Positions 11,875 to 19,861 of a DNA stretch of 64,000 nucleotides are shown here, in pieces (position 1 is the stretch's first letter; each line of letters begins with the position of its first letter). This DNA is from an uncultured delta proteobacterium (GTDB lineage: Bacteria; Myxococcota_A; Polyangia; Polyangiales; Polyangiaceae). The position numbers and the translations under genes are program-made. The notes beneath the pieces are model-generated. The model was not told the DNA's origin. It saw only the letters and a program-made list of their open reading frames with translations, and did no database searches. The DNA is taken from positions 2,144,001 through 2,208,000 of the forward strand of contig CAWAIF010000003.1 in assembly GCA_963782055.1 (NCBI GenBank). The letters run 5' to 3'.

Positions 11875-11938
11875 GCGCCGCGCGTCCGAACGAAAAGAAC
11901 GTGTCGTGCGCGTTGCGGCTGGGGTAGCCTTCCAGTCG

Positions 11939-13297
11939 ATGCGAACGCGCTCGCTCGCTCTTGTCACCGCGCTTCTTTCCGGTTCGACGCTCCTCGTCGC
12001 CAACGCCTCGGCGCAGCAGCCGCAGTACCCGCCGCCGCAAGGGTCGGCGTATCCGCCGCCGCAGTACCCGCCGCCGCAAGGGTCGGCGTATCCGCCGCCG
12101 CAGTACCCGCCGCCGCAAGGGTCGGCGTACCCACCGCCGCAGTACCCGCCGCCGCAGGGGACGGCGCCGCCGCCGCAGTACCCGCCGCCGCAGGGCTACC
12201 CGCCGCCGCAGGGCTACCCGCCGCCGCAAGGCTACCCGCCGCCGCAGGGGACAGCGCCTCCTCCGCAGTACCCGCCGCCGCAGGGCTACCCGCCCCCGCA
12301 AGGCTACCCGCCGCCGCAGGGCTACCCGCCGCCGCAGGGGACGGCGCCTCCTCCGCAGCAGTATCCGCCGCCGGGCAACCCGCCCCCGCAGGCCGCCCTG
12401 CCGCCGCCCGCGCCGGTGGCGCCCAAGGACCCCAACAAGCGCGACGACGGCGAGATGGTGTTCCTCTACGCGACGAGCGCCGCCTACGGCATCACCAGCG
12501 GCATCTGGATCGACACCCTGGCGAAGGTGGACAACCCTGGCCTCGCCCTCATCGCGCCCATCCTGCTCGGCGCCGCGGTCCCCGTCGGCTTCTTCCTGTG
12601 GGACGACTTCGGCACGGTGCATCGCGGGGTGCCCTCCACCATCTCCACCGGCATCATCGCCGGCGCGCTGGAGGGGCTCGGTATCGTCGGCGTCAACCTG
12701 GCGACCACCGGCCCGCAGAAGCAATGGGGCGCCGACGGCGCGATGACCTCCGTCTTCATCGGCTCCACCCTCGGGGGGGTCGGCGGCTACTTCTTCGGCG
12801 AGTTCGTCCGCCCCGACCCGCGCCGCCTCGGGCTCATCGCCAGCGGCGCGGGCTGGGGCTCCACCGCCGGCGCGCTGATGGGGGCCGGCTCCGGCGACAA
12901 CGATCCCGAGTCCACCGGCCAGGGCGCGATGGTCGGCACCCTCGTCGGCCTCAACGTCGGGCTGCTCGGCACCGGCGCGCTCGCCGCCGCCGGCTACGAT
13001 CCCTCCTGGCGCTCGCAGGAATGGATGTGGGCCGGCGCGGGCATCGGCCTGCTCGCCACCAGCCCGGTCTACATCGTCTACGCCGCGACCGATCCCGGGA
13101 AGGCGAAGAACGGCATGGTGGCCAACAGCCTCGGGGAGATCGCCGGCGTCGTGCTCGCCGGGATCCTCACGCGCGACCTGAAGGACCCGGAGCCGCCCGG
13201 CGGAGCGAAGGCAGCCAAGGGCTTCACGCCACCCTTCACCCTCTCCATCAACCCGACACGCGGCGGGATGATGATCGGCGCCTCGGGTCTCTGGTAG
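11939..13297 (+). CDS. Secreted/membrane protein with Pro-Gln-Tyr-rich repeat region and Gly-rich hydrophobic domain
   Basis: Signal peptide ending ASA-Q, long YPPPQG repeat tract, multiple Gly-rich hydrophobic helices, C-terminal aromatic residue. Confidence 0.8.
   Translation: MRTRSLALVTALLSGSTLLVANASAQQPQYPPPQGSAYPPPQYPPPQGSAYPPPQYPPPQGSAYPPPQYPPPQGTAPPPQYPPPQGYPPPQGYPPPQGYPPPQGTAPPPQYPPPQGYPPPQGYPPPQGYPPPQGTAPPPQQYPPPGNPPPQAALPPPAPVAPKDPNKRDDGEMVFLYATSAAYGITSGIWIDTLAKVDNPGLALIAPILLGAAVPVGFFLWDDFGTVHRGVPSTISTGIIAGALEGLGIVGVNLATTGPQKQWGADGAMTSVFIGSTLGGVGGYFFGEFVRPDPRRLGLIASGAGWGSTAGALMGAGSGDNDPESTGQGAMVGTLVGLNVGLLGTGALAAAGYDPSWRSQEWMWAGAGIGLLATSPVYIVYAATDPGKAKNGMVANSLGEIAGVVLAGILTRDLKDPEPPGGAKAAKGFTPPFTLSINPTRGGMMIGASGLW
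12020..12360 (+). repeat. Nested coding tandem repeats: 39-bp unit x3, then 90-bp unit x2 built from 18-bp GYPPPQ units
   Basis: PQYPPPQGSAYPP x3 followed by GTAPPPQYPPPQ(GYPPPQ)3 x2. Confidence 0.85.
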
Positions 13298-13306
13298 CGC
13301 GAGCGC

Positions 13307-13555
13307 TCACCCGCCCGTTGGGGGCAGCGGGCTCGTCGGCGCGTCCGTCGGGGCGGCACTGTCCGCGGGGGCAGCGCTGTCGGCCGGGGCGGCGCTGTCG
13401 GCCGGGGCGGTGTCGGATGGCGCCGCGCTGCCGGCGGGCGGGACCATCTCCGGACCGTCGGGCACCATCGGCGGCTTGCTCTCGCCGCAGGCAGTCGCCA
13501 TCACCAGGGCGGCAGCGAGCGCCGCGAGCGTCAGGGTCGTCGTCCGCTGATTCAT
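13307..13555 (-). CDS. Small disordered lipoprotein with PADSAA repeats
   Basis: RBS GGAGGG upstream; MNQRTTTLTLAALAAALVMATAC lipobox; 18-bp repeat x3. Confidence 0.75.
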   Translation of the reverse strand: MNQRTTTLTLAALAAALVMATACGESKPPMVPDGPEMVPPAGSAAPSDTAPADSAAPADSAAPADSAAPTDAPTSPLPPTGG

Positions 13556-13584
13556 CGTGTCCCTCCGAGACCTACAAAACGCGA

Positions 13585-13614
13585 AGCGGGACGTGCTGTA
13601 AAGCACGTCCCGCT
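13585..13614 (-). terminator. 13-bp perfect hairpin, likely intrinsic terminator of the 13656-13880 gene
   Basis: AGCGGGACGTGCT-GTAA-AGCACGTCCCGCT, followed on the minus strand by TCGCGTTTTGT. Confidence 0.65.
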
Positions 13615-13655
13615 CGCCCGAGGCTCCGCCGTGAGGCGGTTCCCCGTAGGACCAC

Positions 13656-13880
13656 TCACTGAGCCGGGGCGGGAGCCGCCGCGGAGTCGGCCGGAGCCGC
13701 CGCGGAGTCGGCCGGAGCCGCCGCGGAGTCGGCCGGAGCCGCCGCCGAGTCGGTCGGGGCCGTCGTCGTCGTGGTGGTCGTCGAGCTCGGGTCCTGAGCC
13801 TTCGGCGCATCACCACCGCACGCAACACCGGCGATAGCAGACGCCAACGCCAGAACCGTAAGAATCGCAACCTTGTTCAT
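13656..13880 (-). CDS. Small disordered lipoprotein with PADSAAA repeats
   Basis: Strong RBS GAGGAGGAG; MNKVAILTVLALASAIAGVAC lipobox; poly-Thr stretch then 21-bp repeat x4. Confidence 0.8.
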   Translation of the reverse strand: MNKVAILTVLALASAIAGVACGGDAPKAQDPSSTTTTTTTAPTDSAAAPADSAAAPADSAAAPADSAAAPAPAQ

Positions 13881-13920
13881 TTGATCTCCTCCTCGAAAAC
13901 ACACACACGAACGGGGCAAC

Positions 13921-14104: not shown

Positions 14105-16006
<1,902 letters not shown>

Positions 16007-16062
16007 GCCGGGCACGGCGTCGGGTTCGGTGCTGCGGGCCCGTCCGTGGGCAGAGTGGCGCT

Positions 16063-17658
16063 ATGATGATGCTCCCGAACGTGCAGACGGACCCTTCCAC
16101 TGGCGCGCCCGCGCTCGATGCCCGACCGAAGGCCGAGACGCAGAGCATCGAGGATCTGCTCGAGGAGGCACGTCGGGGGCGGATCCGCATCCCGCGGTTT
16201 CAACGCGCGCTGAAGTGGGAGCCGGATGACACGAGCCTCCTGTTCGACAGCATCTACCGCGGGTACCCGATCGGCACGTTGCTGTTCTGGCAGACCGCGG
16301 CGGAGGCGCAGCGCGTCCACTTCGGGCCGGTCGCCATCGATGCGCCTGCGAGGGCCGATGCGTGGTGGGTCGTGGACGGACAGCAGCGCCTGACGTCTCT
16401 CGTGCGCGTCCTGCTTGGGGATGGTTACGACGCGCACGCCCTCGCCTTCGACCTCGACCGGGAGGCGTTCGTTCGGGCGGGCCAGGCGAAGAAGGACGCG
16501 GCTCGCTACCTCCCCCTGACCGAGGTGCTCGACAGCGAGCGCCTCCACCGGTGGGTCGCGGACCGCGAGCTCGCGCGGGAGCGTCAGACCGTCGCCTTTC
16601 GCCTGAACAAGCGGGTGCGCGAGTACTCCGTTCCGGCCTACGTCGTCGTGACTGCCGACGAGAACGTCCTGCGGAGGATCTTCGACCGCAGCAACAACAC
16701 GGGTAAGCGTCTCACGCAGAGCGACGTGTTCGACGCGCTGCACGGCGCACGCAGCGCGGAGGAGCCCGCCGACTTCGAGGGCGTCGCCCAGTCGCTGGAG
16801 GACCTGCAGTTCGGGACGGTCGAGGAGACGATCCTCTACCGTTCGTTGCTGGCGATCCACGGATACGATGCTGTGGGCGGCGAGTTGCCGGCCTCGTTCC
16901 AGGCGGTCGGCGCTTACCCGCGGACGGCACGCGCCGTCCGGGCGGCGATCGTGTTCGTGGTGAATCGCGTCGGTATCCCTCACGTGGACTTGCTGCCGTA
17001 CAAGCAACCGCTCGTGGCCCTCGCGAAGTTCTTCAATCGGCACCCGGAGCCGTCGGCGCGGTCGGTCGAGCTGCTCGCTCGGTGGGTCTGGCGAGGCGCC
17101 TGGAGCGAGCGGCACCGTGGGGACACGGTCTCGACACGGGCAACGCTCGGGGCCATCGGCGACGACGAGAACGCCAGCGTCCAGGCTCTGCTCGCGACCA
17201 TCCCCAAGGAGGAGCCGGCGTCCGGATCCTCGCTGCCCCCGTACAACTTCCGCCATGCGCGGAGCAAGCTGGAGATCCTCGCGCTCCTGTCGCTCGGCCC
17301 GCGCGAACTACGCACCGGAGCGCCGCTCGGGGGCGCGGTCGTGGCGAAGCCCGAGTCCGTCCTCAGCGTCGTATCTACGGACCACCCCCTCGCGAAGACC
17401 GCCGCCGCGCGCATCGTCCACCCGCACATCCCCAGGCTGCGCTTCGCGCTGACGCACGCCGACGCCGACGTCCGGCGAACCCATGCCGTATCGCCCGACG
17501 CCTACCAGGCGCTGGTCGCCGACGACGAGCCGAGGTTCCTCGAGCAACGCGCTGCCGAGATCAAGCAGCTCGTTCACTCCTTCCTCGGGGCTCGTGCCAA
17601 GTGGTCGGACAACGATCGGCCGCCGCTAGACGCGCTTCGCGTTCCGGACGAGGATTGA
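16063..17658 (+). CDS. DUF262 (GmrSD/ParB-like NTPase) domain protein with apparently degenerate C-terminal HNH region (start could be 16063-16081)
   Basis: DUF262 motifs [37 protein letters not shown] and [12 protein letters not shown]. No HIFP/N-type HNH motif is recognisable in the C-terminus. Confidence 0.88.
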
Positions 17659-17659
17659 C

Positions 17660-18853
17660 GTGCTCCTCGGGGTCTACCTCGGTGCCGACCTCGTCGGCGA
17701 GATCGTGACGAGCGCGGACCGCGTGGAGTTCCGCCTCACCGACGCGTACAGGGCGACCTATCCGCGGCCGGTGCTGGGACAGGTATTCGAGGACGACCCG
17801 GATCGCGTGCACCGGAGCCGGATCAAACTGCCTCCGTTCTTCTCCAACCTGCTACCCGAGGGAGCGCTCCGGCAGATGCTCGCACGGCAGCTTGGCTCCC
17901 GGGTGGACGACGAGCCGGCGCTCCTCGCATACCTGGGGGAGGATCTGCCGGGAGCCGTGCGGGTCGTCACCGAGGACGGGTCGAGAGAGGAGGAGGCCGG
18001 AGCGCCCGACGCAGGCGAGCATGAGGCGCCCGACGCGCTGAAGTTCTCGCTCGCCGGCGTCCAGCTGAAGCTCTCGGCGCTTCGCGTCGACCGCGGTTTG
18101 ACCATCCCCACGCACGGGGTCGGAGGAAACTGGATCGTGAAGCTTCCGGACCCCCGGTTTCCAGGGGTTCCGGAGAACGAGTGGTCGATGATGACGCTCG
18201 CAAGGAAGGCGGGGCTCGACGTGGCCGACGTCGAATTGGTCGCCTTGGGGGAGATCCGCGGTCTGCCGGAGGGGATCGCGCCGTCACCCGATACTCTCGC
18301 CCTCGCCGTGCGGCGCTTCGACCGACCCGACGGGGCACGCGTCCACATGGAGGACTTCGCGCAAGCGCTCGACGTGCGCGCCACCACGCACCGCGAGAAG
18401 TACGGTGCGGCGAACTTCGAGACGATCGCGCGGATCGTGGCTCGCGTGGCGCCGGCCTCCGCGGAGGAGTTCGTCCGCCGGCTTGCCTTCAACGTGATGA
18501 TCGGCAACGGCGACGCGCACATCAAGAACTGGTCCCTTCTCTACCCCGACCGCATCCACCCTGTTCTCTCGCCCGGCTATGACCTCGTCTCGACCGTCCT
18601 GTACATCCCGGCCGACGACCTGGGACTCAACCTCGCACGGTCGAAGCAGTTCGGGGACGTGACCGTCGAGAGCTTCGCGCGCCTGCAGCGGAAGGCCGAT
18701 CTGCCCTTCGACGCAGGGGCCACGGCGTTGGGCCTGGTCAGGCGCGTCCGTGAGGTGTGGGCCGAGGTTCGAAGCGCGCTTCCCCTGGCCGAGAGCGGGA
18801 AGCAGGCGATCGAGGCGCACTGGGGCACCGTCCCGCTCGTCCGCACCGCCTAG
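17660..18853 (+). CDS. hipA: HipA-family Ser/Thr kinase toxin (Couple_HipA N-domain + HipA_C)
   Basis: LPPFFSNLLPEG, GEDLPGAV, FSLAGVQLK, WIVK, ENE, RRFDR, HMEDFAQ, IGNGDAHIKNWSLL, LSPGYDL. GTG lies 1 nt after the upstream stop, with a GAGGA RBS. Confidence 0.93.
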   Translation: MLLGVYLGADLVGEIVTSADRVEFRLTDAYRATYPRPVLGQVFEDDPDRVHRSRIKLPPFFSNLLPEGALRQMLARQLGSRVDDEPALLAYLGEDLPGAVRVVTEDGSREEEAGAPDAGEHEAPDALKFSLAGVQLKLSALRVDRGLTIPTHGVGGNWIVKLPDPRFPGVPENEWSMMTLARKAGLDVADVELVALGEIRGLPEGIAPSPDTLALAVRRFDRPDGARVHMEDFAQALDVRATTHREKYGAANFETIARIVARVAPASAEEFVRRLAFNVMIGNGDAHIKNWSLLYPDRIHPVLSPGYDLVSTVLYIPADDLGLNLARSKQFGDVTVESFARLQRKADLPFDAGATALGLVRRVREVWAEVRSALPLAESGKQAIEAHWGTVPLVRTA

Positions 18854-18873
18854 GCTGGTGCTACGCTTCGACC

Positions 18874-19352
18874 ATGGGTTGGAGCGGGGTCCCCGGGCCT
18901 GCGGTGTGCCTGGCGATCCTCGGGTGCGGGAGTGAGCCGGCGGACCTCGACGACGCCGGTCGCGACGCGACGGTGGAGGCGCGGCCGCGCGCGCCGGCGC
19001 AGGGGCGGCTCGTCGACGTCGTGACGCCGCCACTGCAGCCGGACCCGACGTTGGACGGGGGCGGACCCTTTCTCTGCGAGGGGTGTGTCTGCAACGGCGC
19101 CGACCACTTCTGCTACGTCTACTGTGGCAGCGGGGGCGGGGCGCCGCCGCCGCTCGCCCCCGTGGACGGCGGTATCGCCGACGCGGGCCCATGCAAGGAG
19201 CCGGACGCGGCCTTCACGACCGGTTGCCACGCGGTGCCCGCGGAATGCCTGCCCGACCCTTCGTGCGCCTGATCGCACACCACTTCATCGGCAGGTGCGA
19301 GCTGGACCCGAGCGGAGACGGCATCGATCTCACGTTCCAGCCCGTCCCGTGA
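18874..19352 (+). pseudogene. Cys-rich lipoprotein, paralog of the next gene, frameshifted near 19268
   Basis: Lipobox ILGC and shared motif DPTxDGGGPFLCxGCVCNGADHxC. The frame stops at CLPDPSCA, but the homologous tail CELDPSGDGIDLT continues in another frame. Confidence 0.7.
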
Positions 19353-19372
19353 AACCGCGCTACCATCTCGGG

Positions 19373-19861
19373 ATGAGGCGCTTGCTCGTCCTGGGGATCG
19401 CGGGGGTGGTGTGGGCGGCGGTGCCGGCTTGCGGGAGCGACCCCGGGGATGCGGGCGACGCCGGGGCGGACGCGACGGCGGACGTGACGCCGAAGAAGGA
19501 CGCCGCGAGCGACTCGCCCTTCGCCGACGACATCGCCGTCTTCGACTCCTTCCCGCCGGCCGACCCCACCGTCGACGGCGGTGGGCCGTTCCTGTGCAAC
19601 GGGTGCGTGTGCAACGGCGCCGACCACTACTGCTTCCTCGTCAGCGGCGGGGGGGCGCCCCCGCCCATGCCGCTGGATTTCGACGCGGGCGACGCCGGGC
19701 TCTGCCCCGAGCCGGACGCCGGGCCGGCGAGCTGCCGCCCGGTGCCCGCCAATTGCCTGCCCGACCCCTCCTGCTCGTGCATCACCCAATCGCAGGGAGG
19801 AAGCGGCTGCCAGGTGGACCCCAGCGGGAACGGGATCGTCGTCACCCTGCTGGCACCGTAG
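19373..19861 (+). CDS. Cys-rich lipoprotein
   Basis: MRRLLVLGIAGVVWAAVPAC lipobox, DAG linker, FLCNGCVCNGADHYC...CLPDPSCSC...CQVDPSGNG. Confidence 0.8.
   Translation: MRRLLVLGIAGVVWAAVPACGSDPGDAGDAGADATADVTPKKDAASDSPFADDIAVFDSFPPADPTVDGGGPFLCNGCVCNGADHYCFLVSGGGAPPPMPLDFDAGDAGLCPEPDAGPASCRPVPANCLPDPSCSCITQSQGGSGCQVDPSGNGIVVTLLAP

Follow-up and report, generated by a model that had tools for sequence, protein, structure and literature searches.

What is the partner of a HipA kinase when no hipB gene stands beside it, and what might such a partner do? HipA kinases are classic persistence toxins, and their control outside the HipB paradigm has only now been tied to phage defence, through HipAD. 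The question is raised by a 64,000-nucleotide stretch of contig CAWAIF010000003.1 from an uncultured delta proteobacterium of the Polyangiaceae (hereafter the window, meaning this whole stretch), in which a gene for a DUF262 protein directly precedes hipA. The source genome (G000) comprises 7.58 Mb, and the relatives fetched for comparison were Myxococcota. Our analysis showed that the two genes form a real, widespread and self-contained Hip-type module with a new class of partner, which looks like a toxin–antitoxin (TA) or phage-defence module without an earlier description. The best explanation of the evidence as a whole, which we hold to be probable by some distance short of certainty, is a horizontally mobile module in which a HipA toxin is held by its DUF262 partner and released on a trigger.

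The DUF262 (GmrSD_N) gene occupies positions 16063..17658 of the forward strand (ATG at 16063, TGA at 17656–17658) and encodes a 531-aa protein with a BrxU/SspE-like overall architecture. Its reading frame is open upstream as far as 14857, but this extension runs across a sigma-54 activator gene that is read in a different frame, and alignments with homologues begin only at residue ca. 12–20. The hipA gene (17660..18853, forward strand) starts with GTG at 17660 and encodes a full-length 397-aa HipA-family Ser/Thr kinase. At the junction (17656..17662, forward strand), the TGA is followed by a single base (17659) and then the GTG, an arrangement of translational coupling. A Shine–Dalgarno-like GAGGA, as read from the sequence, lies at 17650..17654 of the same strand, 5 nt before the GTG and within the 3′ end of the DUF262 coding region. 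These coordinates confirm what a preliminary description of the window had stated, namely that hipA starts 1 nt after the end of the DUF262 gene at 17658 and that its ribosome-binding site lies inside the DUF262 gene. The absence of a neighbouring helix-turn-helix (HTH) antitoxin, likewise described there, was borne out by a Pfam scan of the five flanking open reading frames (ORFs) of the window, in which no HTH ORF was detected on either side.

The pairing was examined in a search centred on the DUF262 protein but run with both proteins, with one genome per species, in which 80 of 88 confirmed loci were kept (loci, genomes and single proteins bear L, G and P numbers below). The sequence after the DUF262 gene was readable at 74 loci, and at 72 of these a HipA-homologous stretch follows directly downstream in the same orientation; the other six of the 80 end at a contig edge within ca. 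100 nt of the DUF262 match (L002, L027, L033, L042, L070 and L077). Locus L068 has just a 40-codon HipA-like remnant after an ATGA overlap with the DUF262 gene, and L080 (Klebsiella) shares N-domain similarity only and encodes an unrelated DUF262 protein outside the family. A 598-aa ORF downstream in L068 was considered as an alternative effector and rejected; it matched nothing in Pfam or PADLOC and did not resemble HipA in a profile comparison. At six of the 72 loci (L017, L026, L032, L045, L072 and L076), the HipA sequence is incomplete or shows visible degradation. With L073, cut by a contig end, and L005, which has a frame break in the DUF262 gene, also set aside, 64 intact pairs remained, and these together with the window pair are the 65 members to which the alignments and counts below refer. 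For 62 of the 64, the start of HipA homology lies between −5 and +27 nt relative to the DUF262 stop codon, and for the other two it lies at +56 nt.

The hosts belong to the Myxococcota, Gamma- and Betaproteobacteria, Acidobacteriota (Thermoanaerobaculia and Holophagales), Actinomycetota, Planctomycetota, Bdellovibrionota and Riflebacteria. The pair is also found on two Azospirillum plasmids, where RefSeq labels the products ‘DUF262 domain-containing protein’ and ‘type II toxin-antitoxin system HipA family toxin’; one of these plasmids is conjugative, and there the pair adjoins type IV secretion system and recombinase genes. At least 120 clusters of a protein database score at least 439 bits against the DUF262 protein, all of them named hypothetical, DUF262 or GmrSD. 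No third conserved gene emerged from all-versus-all clustering of 5,825 ORFs from 81 loci, which gave just shadow ORFs beyond the pair. The adjacency is far beyond chance and the pairing real; the concern that the pair might not recur in other genomes is removed by its presence at these loci in several phyla.

A HipA-centred check, which avoids the bias of a DUF262 query, was made on 400 other Myxococcota genomes with each protein as query (E ≤ 1e-30). Matches to HipA were present in 38 genomes, and matches to the DUF262 protein in 36. A DUF262 gene lies directly upstream, on the same contig and strand, at 32 of the 42 HipA loci, a total that includes two weaker matches left unclassified (G187 and G205). 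Three further loci are at contig edges (G116 and G389, split; G229, cut), and in G068 an N-terminally truncated HipA has no DUF262 gene within 3.4 kb upstream. The remaining four (L093–L096, in G158, G168, G258 and G358) lack any DUF262 gene and have an HTH_3 HipB instead.

These four loci show what the DUF262 gene replaces in position. Their kinases are 46%–48% identical to the window HipA and score 423–445 bits with a profile for which DUF262-paired kinases alone were used. Directly upstream, a small conserved ORF overlaps the kinase start (L093:2910–3344, L094:2965–3378, L095:2553–3002 and L096:2843–3178, the latter two on the reverse strand); the copies are 61%–66% identical to that of L093 and carry HTH_3 (E 2e-13 to 4e-12), and because of this match the ORF is identified as a canonical HipB. 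Since the sister kinases have their HTH_3 HipB directly upstream, the DUF262 gene takes the very place that HipB has in a hipBA lineage of close kinship, which supports the antitoxin position assigned to it in the preliminary description. Among 299 flanking ORFs within 700 nt of the 64 family loci and the window pair, HTH_3 was matched only once, on the opposite strand 282 nt downstream at L011. The whole family thus uses a partner other than HipB, and the possibility that homologous loci carry a hipB simply lost in this genome, raised earlier as an objection, was rejected on this count.

Two other HipA genes of the same genome do have HTH_3 neighbours, upstream at L085 (E 2e-4) and downstream at L087 (E 7e-10). 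They lie at ca. 6.83–6.95 Mb of G000:C3 (L082–L087), where at least two more DUF262-like genes occur within ca. 125 kb; this may be an accessory or defence-rich region.

The two proteins also share a history. Their pairwise identities correlate over the 65 pairs (Pearson r 0.92; Spearman 0.67), and none of 999 permutations gave so high a value. A HipA tree of 92 rows (65 DUF262-paired kinases, four HipB-paired kinases, 21 long forms and two paralogues from the same genome) was computed in two runs, both of which kept the four HipB-paired kinases as one clade (Shimodaira–Hasegawa-like approximate likelihood ratio test 100). In the first run, which had one outgroup row (L085) in the wrong reading frame, this clade and 20 of the 21 long forms share one side of a branch with support 96, with all 65 DUF262-paired kinases and one long form (P0003) on the other, and clades mix phyla, such as Actinomycetota with Chromatiaceae and Competibacter (support 100). 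Because the protein identities correlate and clades mix phyla, the two genes can be said to travel together, horizontal transfer included. In the second run, with that row corrected, partner labels were strongly clustered (0 of 500 shuffles as low), and the DUF262 label needed three changes, of which starred branches force only one. Given these counts and the long branches of the outgroups, neither monophyly of the DUF262-paired kinases nor a direction of partner exchange is claimed.

The long forms (P0003–P0023; 703–811 aa) are 36%–45% identical to the window kinase. Six of them were scanned and have Couple_hipA and HipA_C in the first ca. 390 residues, followed by a C-terminal extension of 320–420 aa without a Pfam match. 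P0003 has no similarity to the DUF262 protein, and an Atlas search with the extension of P0006 returned no usable match; the extension may be a cis-acting regulator. The 21 long forms were also checked as candidate DUF262–HipA fusions and rejected, none containing PF03235; as only 8,000 candidates were scored, this is a weak absence.

The catalytic motifs of both window proteins are intact. The kinase consists of an N-terminal subdomain, Couple_hipA (residues 4–102; 17669..17965, forward strand; Pfam E 1.1e-16), of which residues 34–49 belong to the interface predicted below, and a HipA_C kinase core (residues 129–370; 18044..18769, forward strand; Pfam E 9.7e-45) with SLAGVQLK as its Gly-rich loop, the catalytic GDAHIKN as part of GNGDAHIKN and the Mg-binding YD as part of GYD. 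Residues S130, G133, K137, K161, D285, H287, K289, N290 and D308 are invariant in the 65 members. From alignment to HipT and HipA chains, with roles transferred from E. coli HipA, we take these positions to be the serine of the Gly-rich loop, the ATP lysine, the catalytic loop and the Mg-binding aspartate. The closest solved chain to the core is HipT (7ab4_C, E 1.4e-18), E. coli HipA being distant (ca. 1e-9), and PADLOC-DB v2 returned only a weak PDC-M03A match for the window kinase.

The DUF262 protein begins with a ParB/Srx-type N-domain (residues 29–226; 16147..16740, forward strand) that matches GmrSD_N (PF03235, E 5.8e-30) and contains FQR..W, LFDS and WWVVDGQQR. F46, Q47, R48, W52, D62, S63 and the stretch WWVVDGQQR at 101–109 are invariant in the 65 members, and an FDRSNNTG motif is present in the window protein. 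All DUF262 and HipA motifs quoted in the preliminary description were therefore found, and the catalytic residues of HipA are intact as described there. In the available part of Payne et al. (2024), RLFDS and DGQQR are the nucleotide-binding and hydrolysis motifs of BrxU. No NCBIfam model was found for the DUF262 protein. Its AlphaFold2 model has a predicted local distance difference test (pLDDT) score of 90.4 and a predicted template modelling score of 0.79, and a Foldseek search with this model returned BrxU at the top (7p9k_A, E 4.7e-11), then SspE and DndI. In VIA-align comparisons, model residues 22–517 were matched to residues 1–583 of BrxU chain 7p9k_A (Z 15.8, root-mean-square deviation (rmsd) 15.6, 456 aligned), and residues 226–516 to the C-terminal domain of SspE (7dri_C; Z 8.7, rmsd 5.1, 260 aligned), whereas ParB/Srx N-domains gave Z values of 5–7. 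On the strength of these matches, the modelled protein has the whole GmrSD-type architecture.

Its helical linker and C-terminal region (residues 227–508; 16741..17586, forward strand) is, in the model, the structural equivalent of the C-terminal part of BrxU and SspE. None of the 65 members, however, matches the DUF1524 nuclease domain even at E ≤ 1, and column counts of the same members revealed no conserved acid–His (D/E–H) dyad. By comparison, HNH motifs are required for defence in the systems covered by the accessible portion of Payne et al. (2024), DHIYP in BrxU and EHICP in HEC-06. The conserved C-terminal features of the family are AANR.L.P (AAARIVHP in the window), S473–H474 (His in 64 of 65) and R496 (65 of 65). 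Since neither the domain nor the dyad was found in a region that is fold-equivalent in the model to the BrxU/SspE C-terminal part, this region is likely a divergent or dead nuclease fold, and we read it as a decayed or repurposed nuclease region.

A structure prediction of the pair pointed to direct binding. The DUF262–HipA complex scored 0.83, 0.83 and 0.82, against 0.00 for the best control, in accordance with the coupling of the two proteins supposed in the preliminary description. The same score mark is reached by 116 of 157 solved complexes and two of 215 mismatched pairs, counts that hold only roughly here because the prediction was fed with our own 65-row alignments of both proteins. 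Agreement between the runs extends to at least 90% of the contacts, and the partner pLDDT is 80–81. We know of no like complex, so that memory of a solved structure is unlikely to lie behind the score. The predicted interface comprises residues 331–333 and 509–530 of the DUF262 protein and residues 34–49, 236–263, 299–300, 324–327 and 345–346 of HipA.

The main contact region on the DUF262 side coincides with a conserved C-terminal tail (residues 509–531; 17587..17655, forward strand), a predicted HipA-docking peptide with the consensus W...DRP[PS]L..L..DDE. Its columns are conserved in a majority of the 65 members (W514 in 38, D518 in 52, P520 in 51 and L522 in 38, with Ile in a further 17). 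Three HipA-less relatives were aligned to the family profile (L107 and the PDC-M55C proteins of L109 and L110); in each, the alignment stops before the tail and no such motif is present, and L106 was inspected by its C-terminal letters alone. DUF262 genes with a decayed HipA (L097 and L098) or with none (L099) still reach profile positions 533–542 of 545. The DUF262 protein is accordingly predicted to bind HipA through its conserved C-terminal tail, and we consider it very probable that the two form a functional, physically interacting pair. Separately, the acidic tail of the sister-clade HipB (..ER[PS]LYADD) loosely resembles the DUF262 tail. This is an impression from short motifs; the two tails could be a shared HipA-docking motif, and the acidic C-terminal peptide of the DUF262 protein may have its origin in the HipB tail or imitate it.

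The way in which copies of the module decay bears on which protein is the toxin. HipA is broken or reduced to a remnant beside an intact DUF262 gene at L026, L032, L068, L072, L076, L097, L098 and G376:C372, the first set of these loci having been ascertained via the DUF262 gene. Among the kinases examined, none of this clade was intact and yet devoid of a DUF262 or HipB gene upstream. A toxin–antidote pair would be expected to decay in this asymmetric way. In genome G050, which has no HipA match, two DUF262 copies contain in-frame stops (G050:C54:29922–31517, two TAG; G050:C5:101598–102785, one TGA) and are probably decayed modules.

The distribution of the pair is patchy. The kinase was found in 38 of the 400 Myxococcota genomes, and in 37 of 255 genera when G000 is counted. 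In the one other genome of the same genus that was searched (G190), the pair was not found and no remnant of either gene was detectable; the sigma-54 activator and MutS2 genes that flank the locus are separated there by 1105 nt, versus 3946 nt in the window. This syntenic gap of ca. 1.1 kb has room only for a gene like the small Cys-rich ORFs that follow hipA in the window. The pair often has a much lower GC content at third codon positions (GC3) than its neighbours (L007, 0.51 vs. 0.70–1.00; L067, 0.54 vs. 0.67–0.95). In several high-GC hosts (L007, L043, L050, L051, L065, L067 and others), GC3 of the DUF262 gene is 0.2–0.4 below that of neighbouring genes, which suggests its fairly recent horizontal arrival. 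Within some genera and families the position is stable, the pair lying between Peptidase_S58 and JAB/ThiS genes in Amycolatopsis (L065, L067 and L069) and between DsrE/H and NUDIX genes in Methylococcaceae (L036 and L037). Neighbours resembling TA, mobile or defence genes occur at ca. 11 of the 65 loci (insertion sequence elements, MazE, a ParE-like protein, an MNT/HEPN pair, Uma2, SLFN_AlbA_2, DUF559 and DUF2442).

How does this pair relate to known systems? As in hipBA, the window HipA has the N-subdomain, the HipA_C core and all catalytic residues, and an upstream partner gene is translationally coupled to it; the partner, however, is a 531-aa DUF262 NTPase (nucleoside triphosphatase) and not an HTH protein, and no HTH (HipB) gene is adjacent. 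Likewise, HipT of hipBST is the closest solved kinase core, whereas the HipS-equivalent N-subdomain is fused in the window HipA (Couple_hipA, 4–102) and there is no separate HipS or HipB gene. The Hip organisations named in the available part of Gerdes et al. 2021 (PMC8262856) are hipBA, hipAB, hipBST, hipEB, hipH, hipRF, hipRG, hipMP and hipL, as well as hipIN and hipJS, DUF262 being part of none of them, and the strings ‘DUF’ and ‘GmrSD’ are absent from the text of that paper. The best functional analogue is HipAD (DS-6, PDC-M66), also a two-gene system of a HipA-like kinase and a non-HipB partner. As far as the accessible portions of PMC13092281 and PMC12548924 go, the kinase and its DUF3037/DUF1829 partner defend against phage, the kinase catalytic residue or gene is needed, deletion of the partner is toxic and AlphaFold3 predicts binding. 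The DUF3037/DUF1829 partner is nevertheless unrelated to DUF262, the window partner having GmrSD_N only, and neither window protein matched the PDC-M66 profile at E ≤ 0.01.

On the DUF262 side, the window protein resembles BrxU, GmrSD and SspE in its N-domain with LFDS and DGQQR and in the same multi-domain architecture, and differs from them in that DUF1524/HNH is not detectable, no dyad of the DHIYP or EHICP type is conserved, a C-terminal tail is added and a kinase is coupled to it. In PADLOC-DB v2, it matches PDC-M55C (E 2.4e-57, 192.8 bits; residues 19–508 on profile positions 7–534 of 554). Within the source genome, PDC-M55A was found only at C2 and distant C3 sites, none adjacent to the pair and the best match being an AAA_15/AAA_21/DUF3696 ATPase, and PDC-M55B had no match; the partner in the window is HipA instead. 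Complete PDC-M55 A-B-C operons are present on two IMG/VR contigs (L109:2541–6623 and L110:2720–6596), where the bit scores are 178 and 161 for A, 93 and 85 for B, and 241 and 260 for C. They encode an ABC-type ATPase, a protein of ca. 320–360 aa for which no Pfam annotation was obtained (PDC-M55B) and the DUF262 protein. Because genuine operons of this kind exist while the window lacks adjacent A and B genes, the HipA-linked DUF262 proteins are a sister group of PDC-M55C with a different partner. The ptuXYZ locus, in the part of PMC11980606 that was available, combines a DUF262 protein without DUF1524 (PtuX), a PtuA-like ATPase and an RNase; the window protein resembles PtuX, so described, in lacking DUF1524, and PDC-M55 is possibly ptuXYZ by this analogy.

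The preliminary description had held that the pairing is not a described system. This stands in so far as no catalogued system was matched (PDC-M55C only in PADLOC, without adjacent A and B, and no PDC-M66) and literature searches found no paper on a HipA–DUF262/GmrSD pairing or on ‘PDC-M55’, although the supplements of Payne et al. 2024, which lay outside the search, might list related candidates. It needs qualification in that the kind of system is known through HipAD. That a HipA toxin may serve in defence with a partner other than HipB is thus an already known idea; the DUF262 partner, the tail and the link to GmrSD and PDC-M55 are not in the literature searched.

In the mechanism that we propose, an active HipA Ser/Thr kinase would be the toxin, and its partner, in place of the HTH antitoxin HipB, a BrxU/GmrSD-like DUF262 NTPase from which a recognisable HNH nuclease domain would have disappeared and to which a conserved C-terminal tail, acidic and proline-containing, would have been added. 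Through this tail and the loop 331–333, the DUF262 protein would bind the N-subdomain (34–49) and C-lobe helices (236–263) of HipA, and in the resting state this binding would keep the kinase in check, as an antitoxin does. That the DUF262 protein neutralises HipA is, in our view, somewhat more probable than its opposite. The NTP- or DNA-responsive DUF262 domain could serve as the switch, responding to foreign or modified DNA, a nucleotide change or loss of a labile partner. Once freed, HipA might phosphorylate a translation factor; the likeliest is an aminoacyl-tRNA synthetase, as is the case for HipA and HipT. The resulting growth stop would lead to abortive infection or post-segregational killing. 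An anti-phage role triggered by sensing is a possibility that we put somewhat below an even chance. Its most specific form, in which the DUF262 protein descends from a BrxU/GmrSD-type sensor, is nuclease-dead and, on NTP-dependent ParB/Srx sensing of modified or foreign DNA or of nucleotide status, does not cut DNA but lets go of a HipA held by the acidic peptide and so causes kinase-mediated abortive infection, is offered tentatively and is rather doubtful.

Much of the same evidence would suit a plain type II TA or addiction module, with the DUF262 protein only as a protein antitoxin, possibly a DNA-binding autoregulator, and with plasmid or region stability or persistence as the benefit and no phage sensing. 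The upstream, tightly coupled antitoxin position, the two Azospirillum plasmids (one conjugative), the earlier decay of the toxin, the largely housekeeping neighbourhoods and the two other HipA genes of this genome with HTH partners all fit such a module. A passive antitoxin, however, would have no need of LFDS and DGQQR motifs invariant in 65 members; moreover, the closest DUF262 relatives are defence candidates (PDC-M55C in the A-B-C operons of L109 and L110), the fold matches BrxU and SspE, and a HipA with a non-HipB partner does defend against phage according to the portions of the HipAD papers cited above. We regard this explanation as unlikely, though with an appreciable share of the probability. 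The invariant enzymatic motifs and the predicted binding would also agree with a reversed logic, with HipA as the regulator, through phosphorylation or allosteric control, of a DUF262 effector, a ParB/Srx-type NTPase or nuclease acting on DNA; DUF262/ParB-Srx proteins without DUF1524 have been proposed as nucleases in the available part of the PtuX study (PMC11980606). Yet it is HipA that decays while DUF262 persists, as a toxin should, kinases of the same type have a classical HipB antitoxin in the sister lineage, a nuclease domain is detectable in none of the 65 members and, in the accessible text on the HipA–DUF3037 precedent, the kinase is the toxin. The reversed roles are therefore improbable.

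A physiological signalling pair, whose kinase would phosphorylate a host target in normal regulation on a nucleotide signal read by the DUF262 domain, might be suspected from the stable syntenic positions among core genes in Amycolatopsis and Methylococcaceae and from the place of the window pair directly behind a sigma-54 activator. It is very improbable against the patchy distribution (38 of 400 Myxococcota genomes, and not in the same-genus G190), the mixing of phyla in HipA clades, a GC3 often well below that of neighbours, the plasmid copies and the pseudogenised ones, features typical of accessory conflict modules. Nothing was found in favour of accidental adjacency, or of a hipBA locus with hipB recently lost in this genome only, as an explanation; adjacency in 72 of 74 loci across phyla, a family that as a whole lacks hipB and the co-variation of the two proteins reduce its probability to almost nothing.

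Several points nevertheless weigh against a mobile module whose DUF262 partner holds and releases a HipA toxin. A simple antitoxin would not usually have 531 residues and be enzymatically intact, as this partner is. The residues of the kinase active site (129–139, 161, 285–290 and 308) are not among the predicted contacts, and the model leaves inhibition unexplained; HipB likewise is not known to occlude the HipA active site, and a C-terminal Trp of HipB docks on HipA. Complex predictors may also pass pairs via co-evolution in paired alignments, without functional direction, and the score is the model's own confidence. The rooting of the HipA tree is unreliable with its long-branched outgroups. 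The genes next to the pair vary from lineage to lineage and are for the most part housekeeping genes, and no defence-island signal was seen within ±700 nt of the 65 loci, the only span scanned and one on which no formal enrichment test was made. Finally, 50,697 phage records gave no match, and none of six distant DUF262 relatives on viral contigs is accompanied by HipA.

The surroundings of the pair in the window have a local GC content of ca. 69%, with no sharp island signal in the GC profile, and a promoter and terminator scan of 15700–19200 detected nothing. The pair is preceded by the gene for a GAF and sigma-54 activator protein (14105–16006) and followed by small Cys-rich proteins and then MutS2. 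The first of these, two paralogous ORFs resembling small secreted proteins or lipoproteins, lie directly 3′ of hipA on the forward strand (18874–19272 and within 19085–19861) and have a common Cys-rich block, GGGPFLC.GCVCNGADH.C, with no Pfam match. Further upstream, a forward-strand ORF (11906–13297; 463 aa), known here from its translation only, has a long repeat rich in Pro, Gln, Gly and Tyr (PPQGYPPPQ...) and, after it, a half that is rich in glycine and apparently spans the membrane. On the reverse strand at 13307–13919, two candidate lipoprotein ORFs with tandem APADSA/AAAPADS repeats occupy overlapping frames, either of which may be real.

With more than 70 genomic pairs seen, the module represents a large cross-phylum family in which HipA has a wholly different partner, and this DUF262 partner joins the world of Hip kinases to that of GmrSD and BrxU. 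For genes now annotated just as ‘DUF262 domain-containing protein’ and ‘HipA family toxin’, a simple annotation rule follows, namely GmrSD_N without DUF1524 overlapping a downstream HipA. The family also provides a natural system in which to ask how a ParB/Srx NTPase gates a kinase, whether a short tail suffices for neutralisation and how sensors and effectors are swapped. If the proposed sensing role is true, the DUF262 chassis, which also occurs in PDC-M55 with an ABC-ATPase effector set, would be a portable sensor module exchanged between effector classes.

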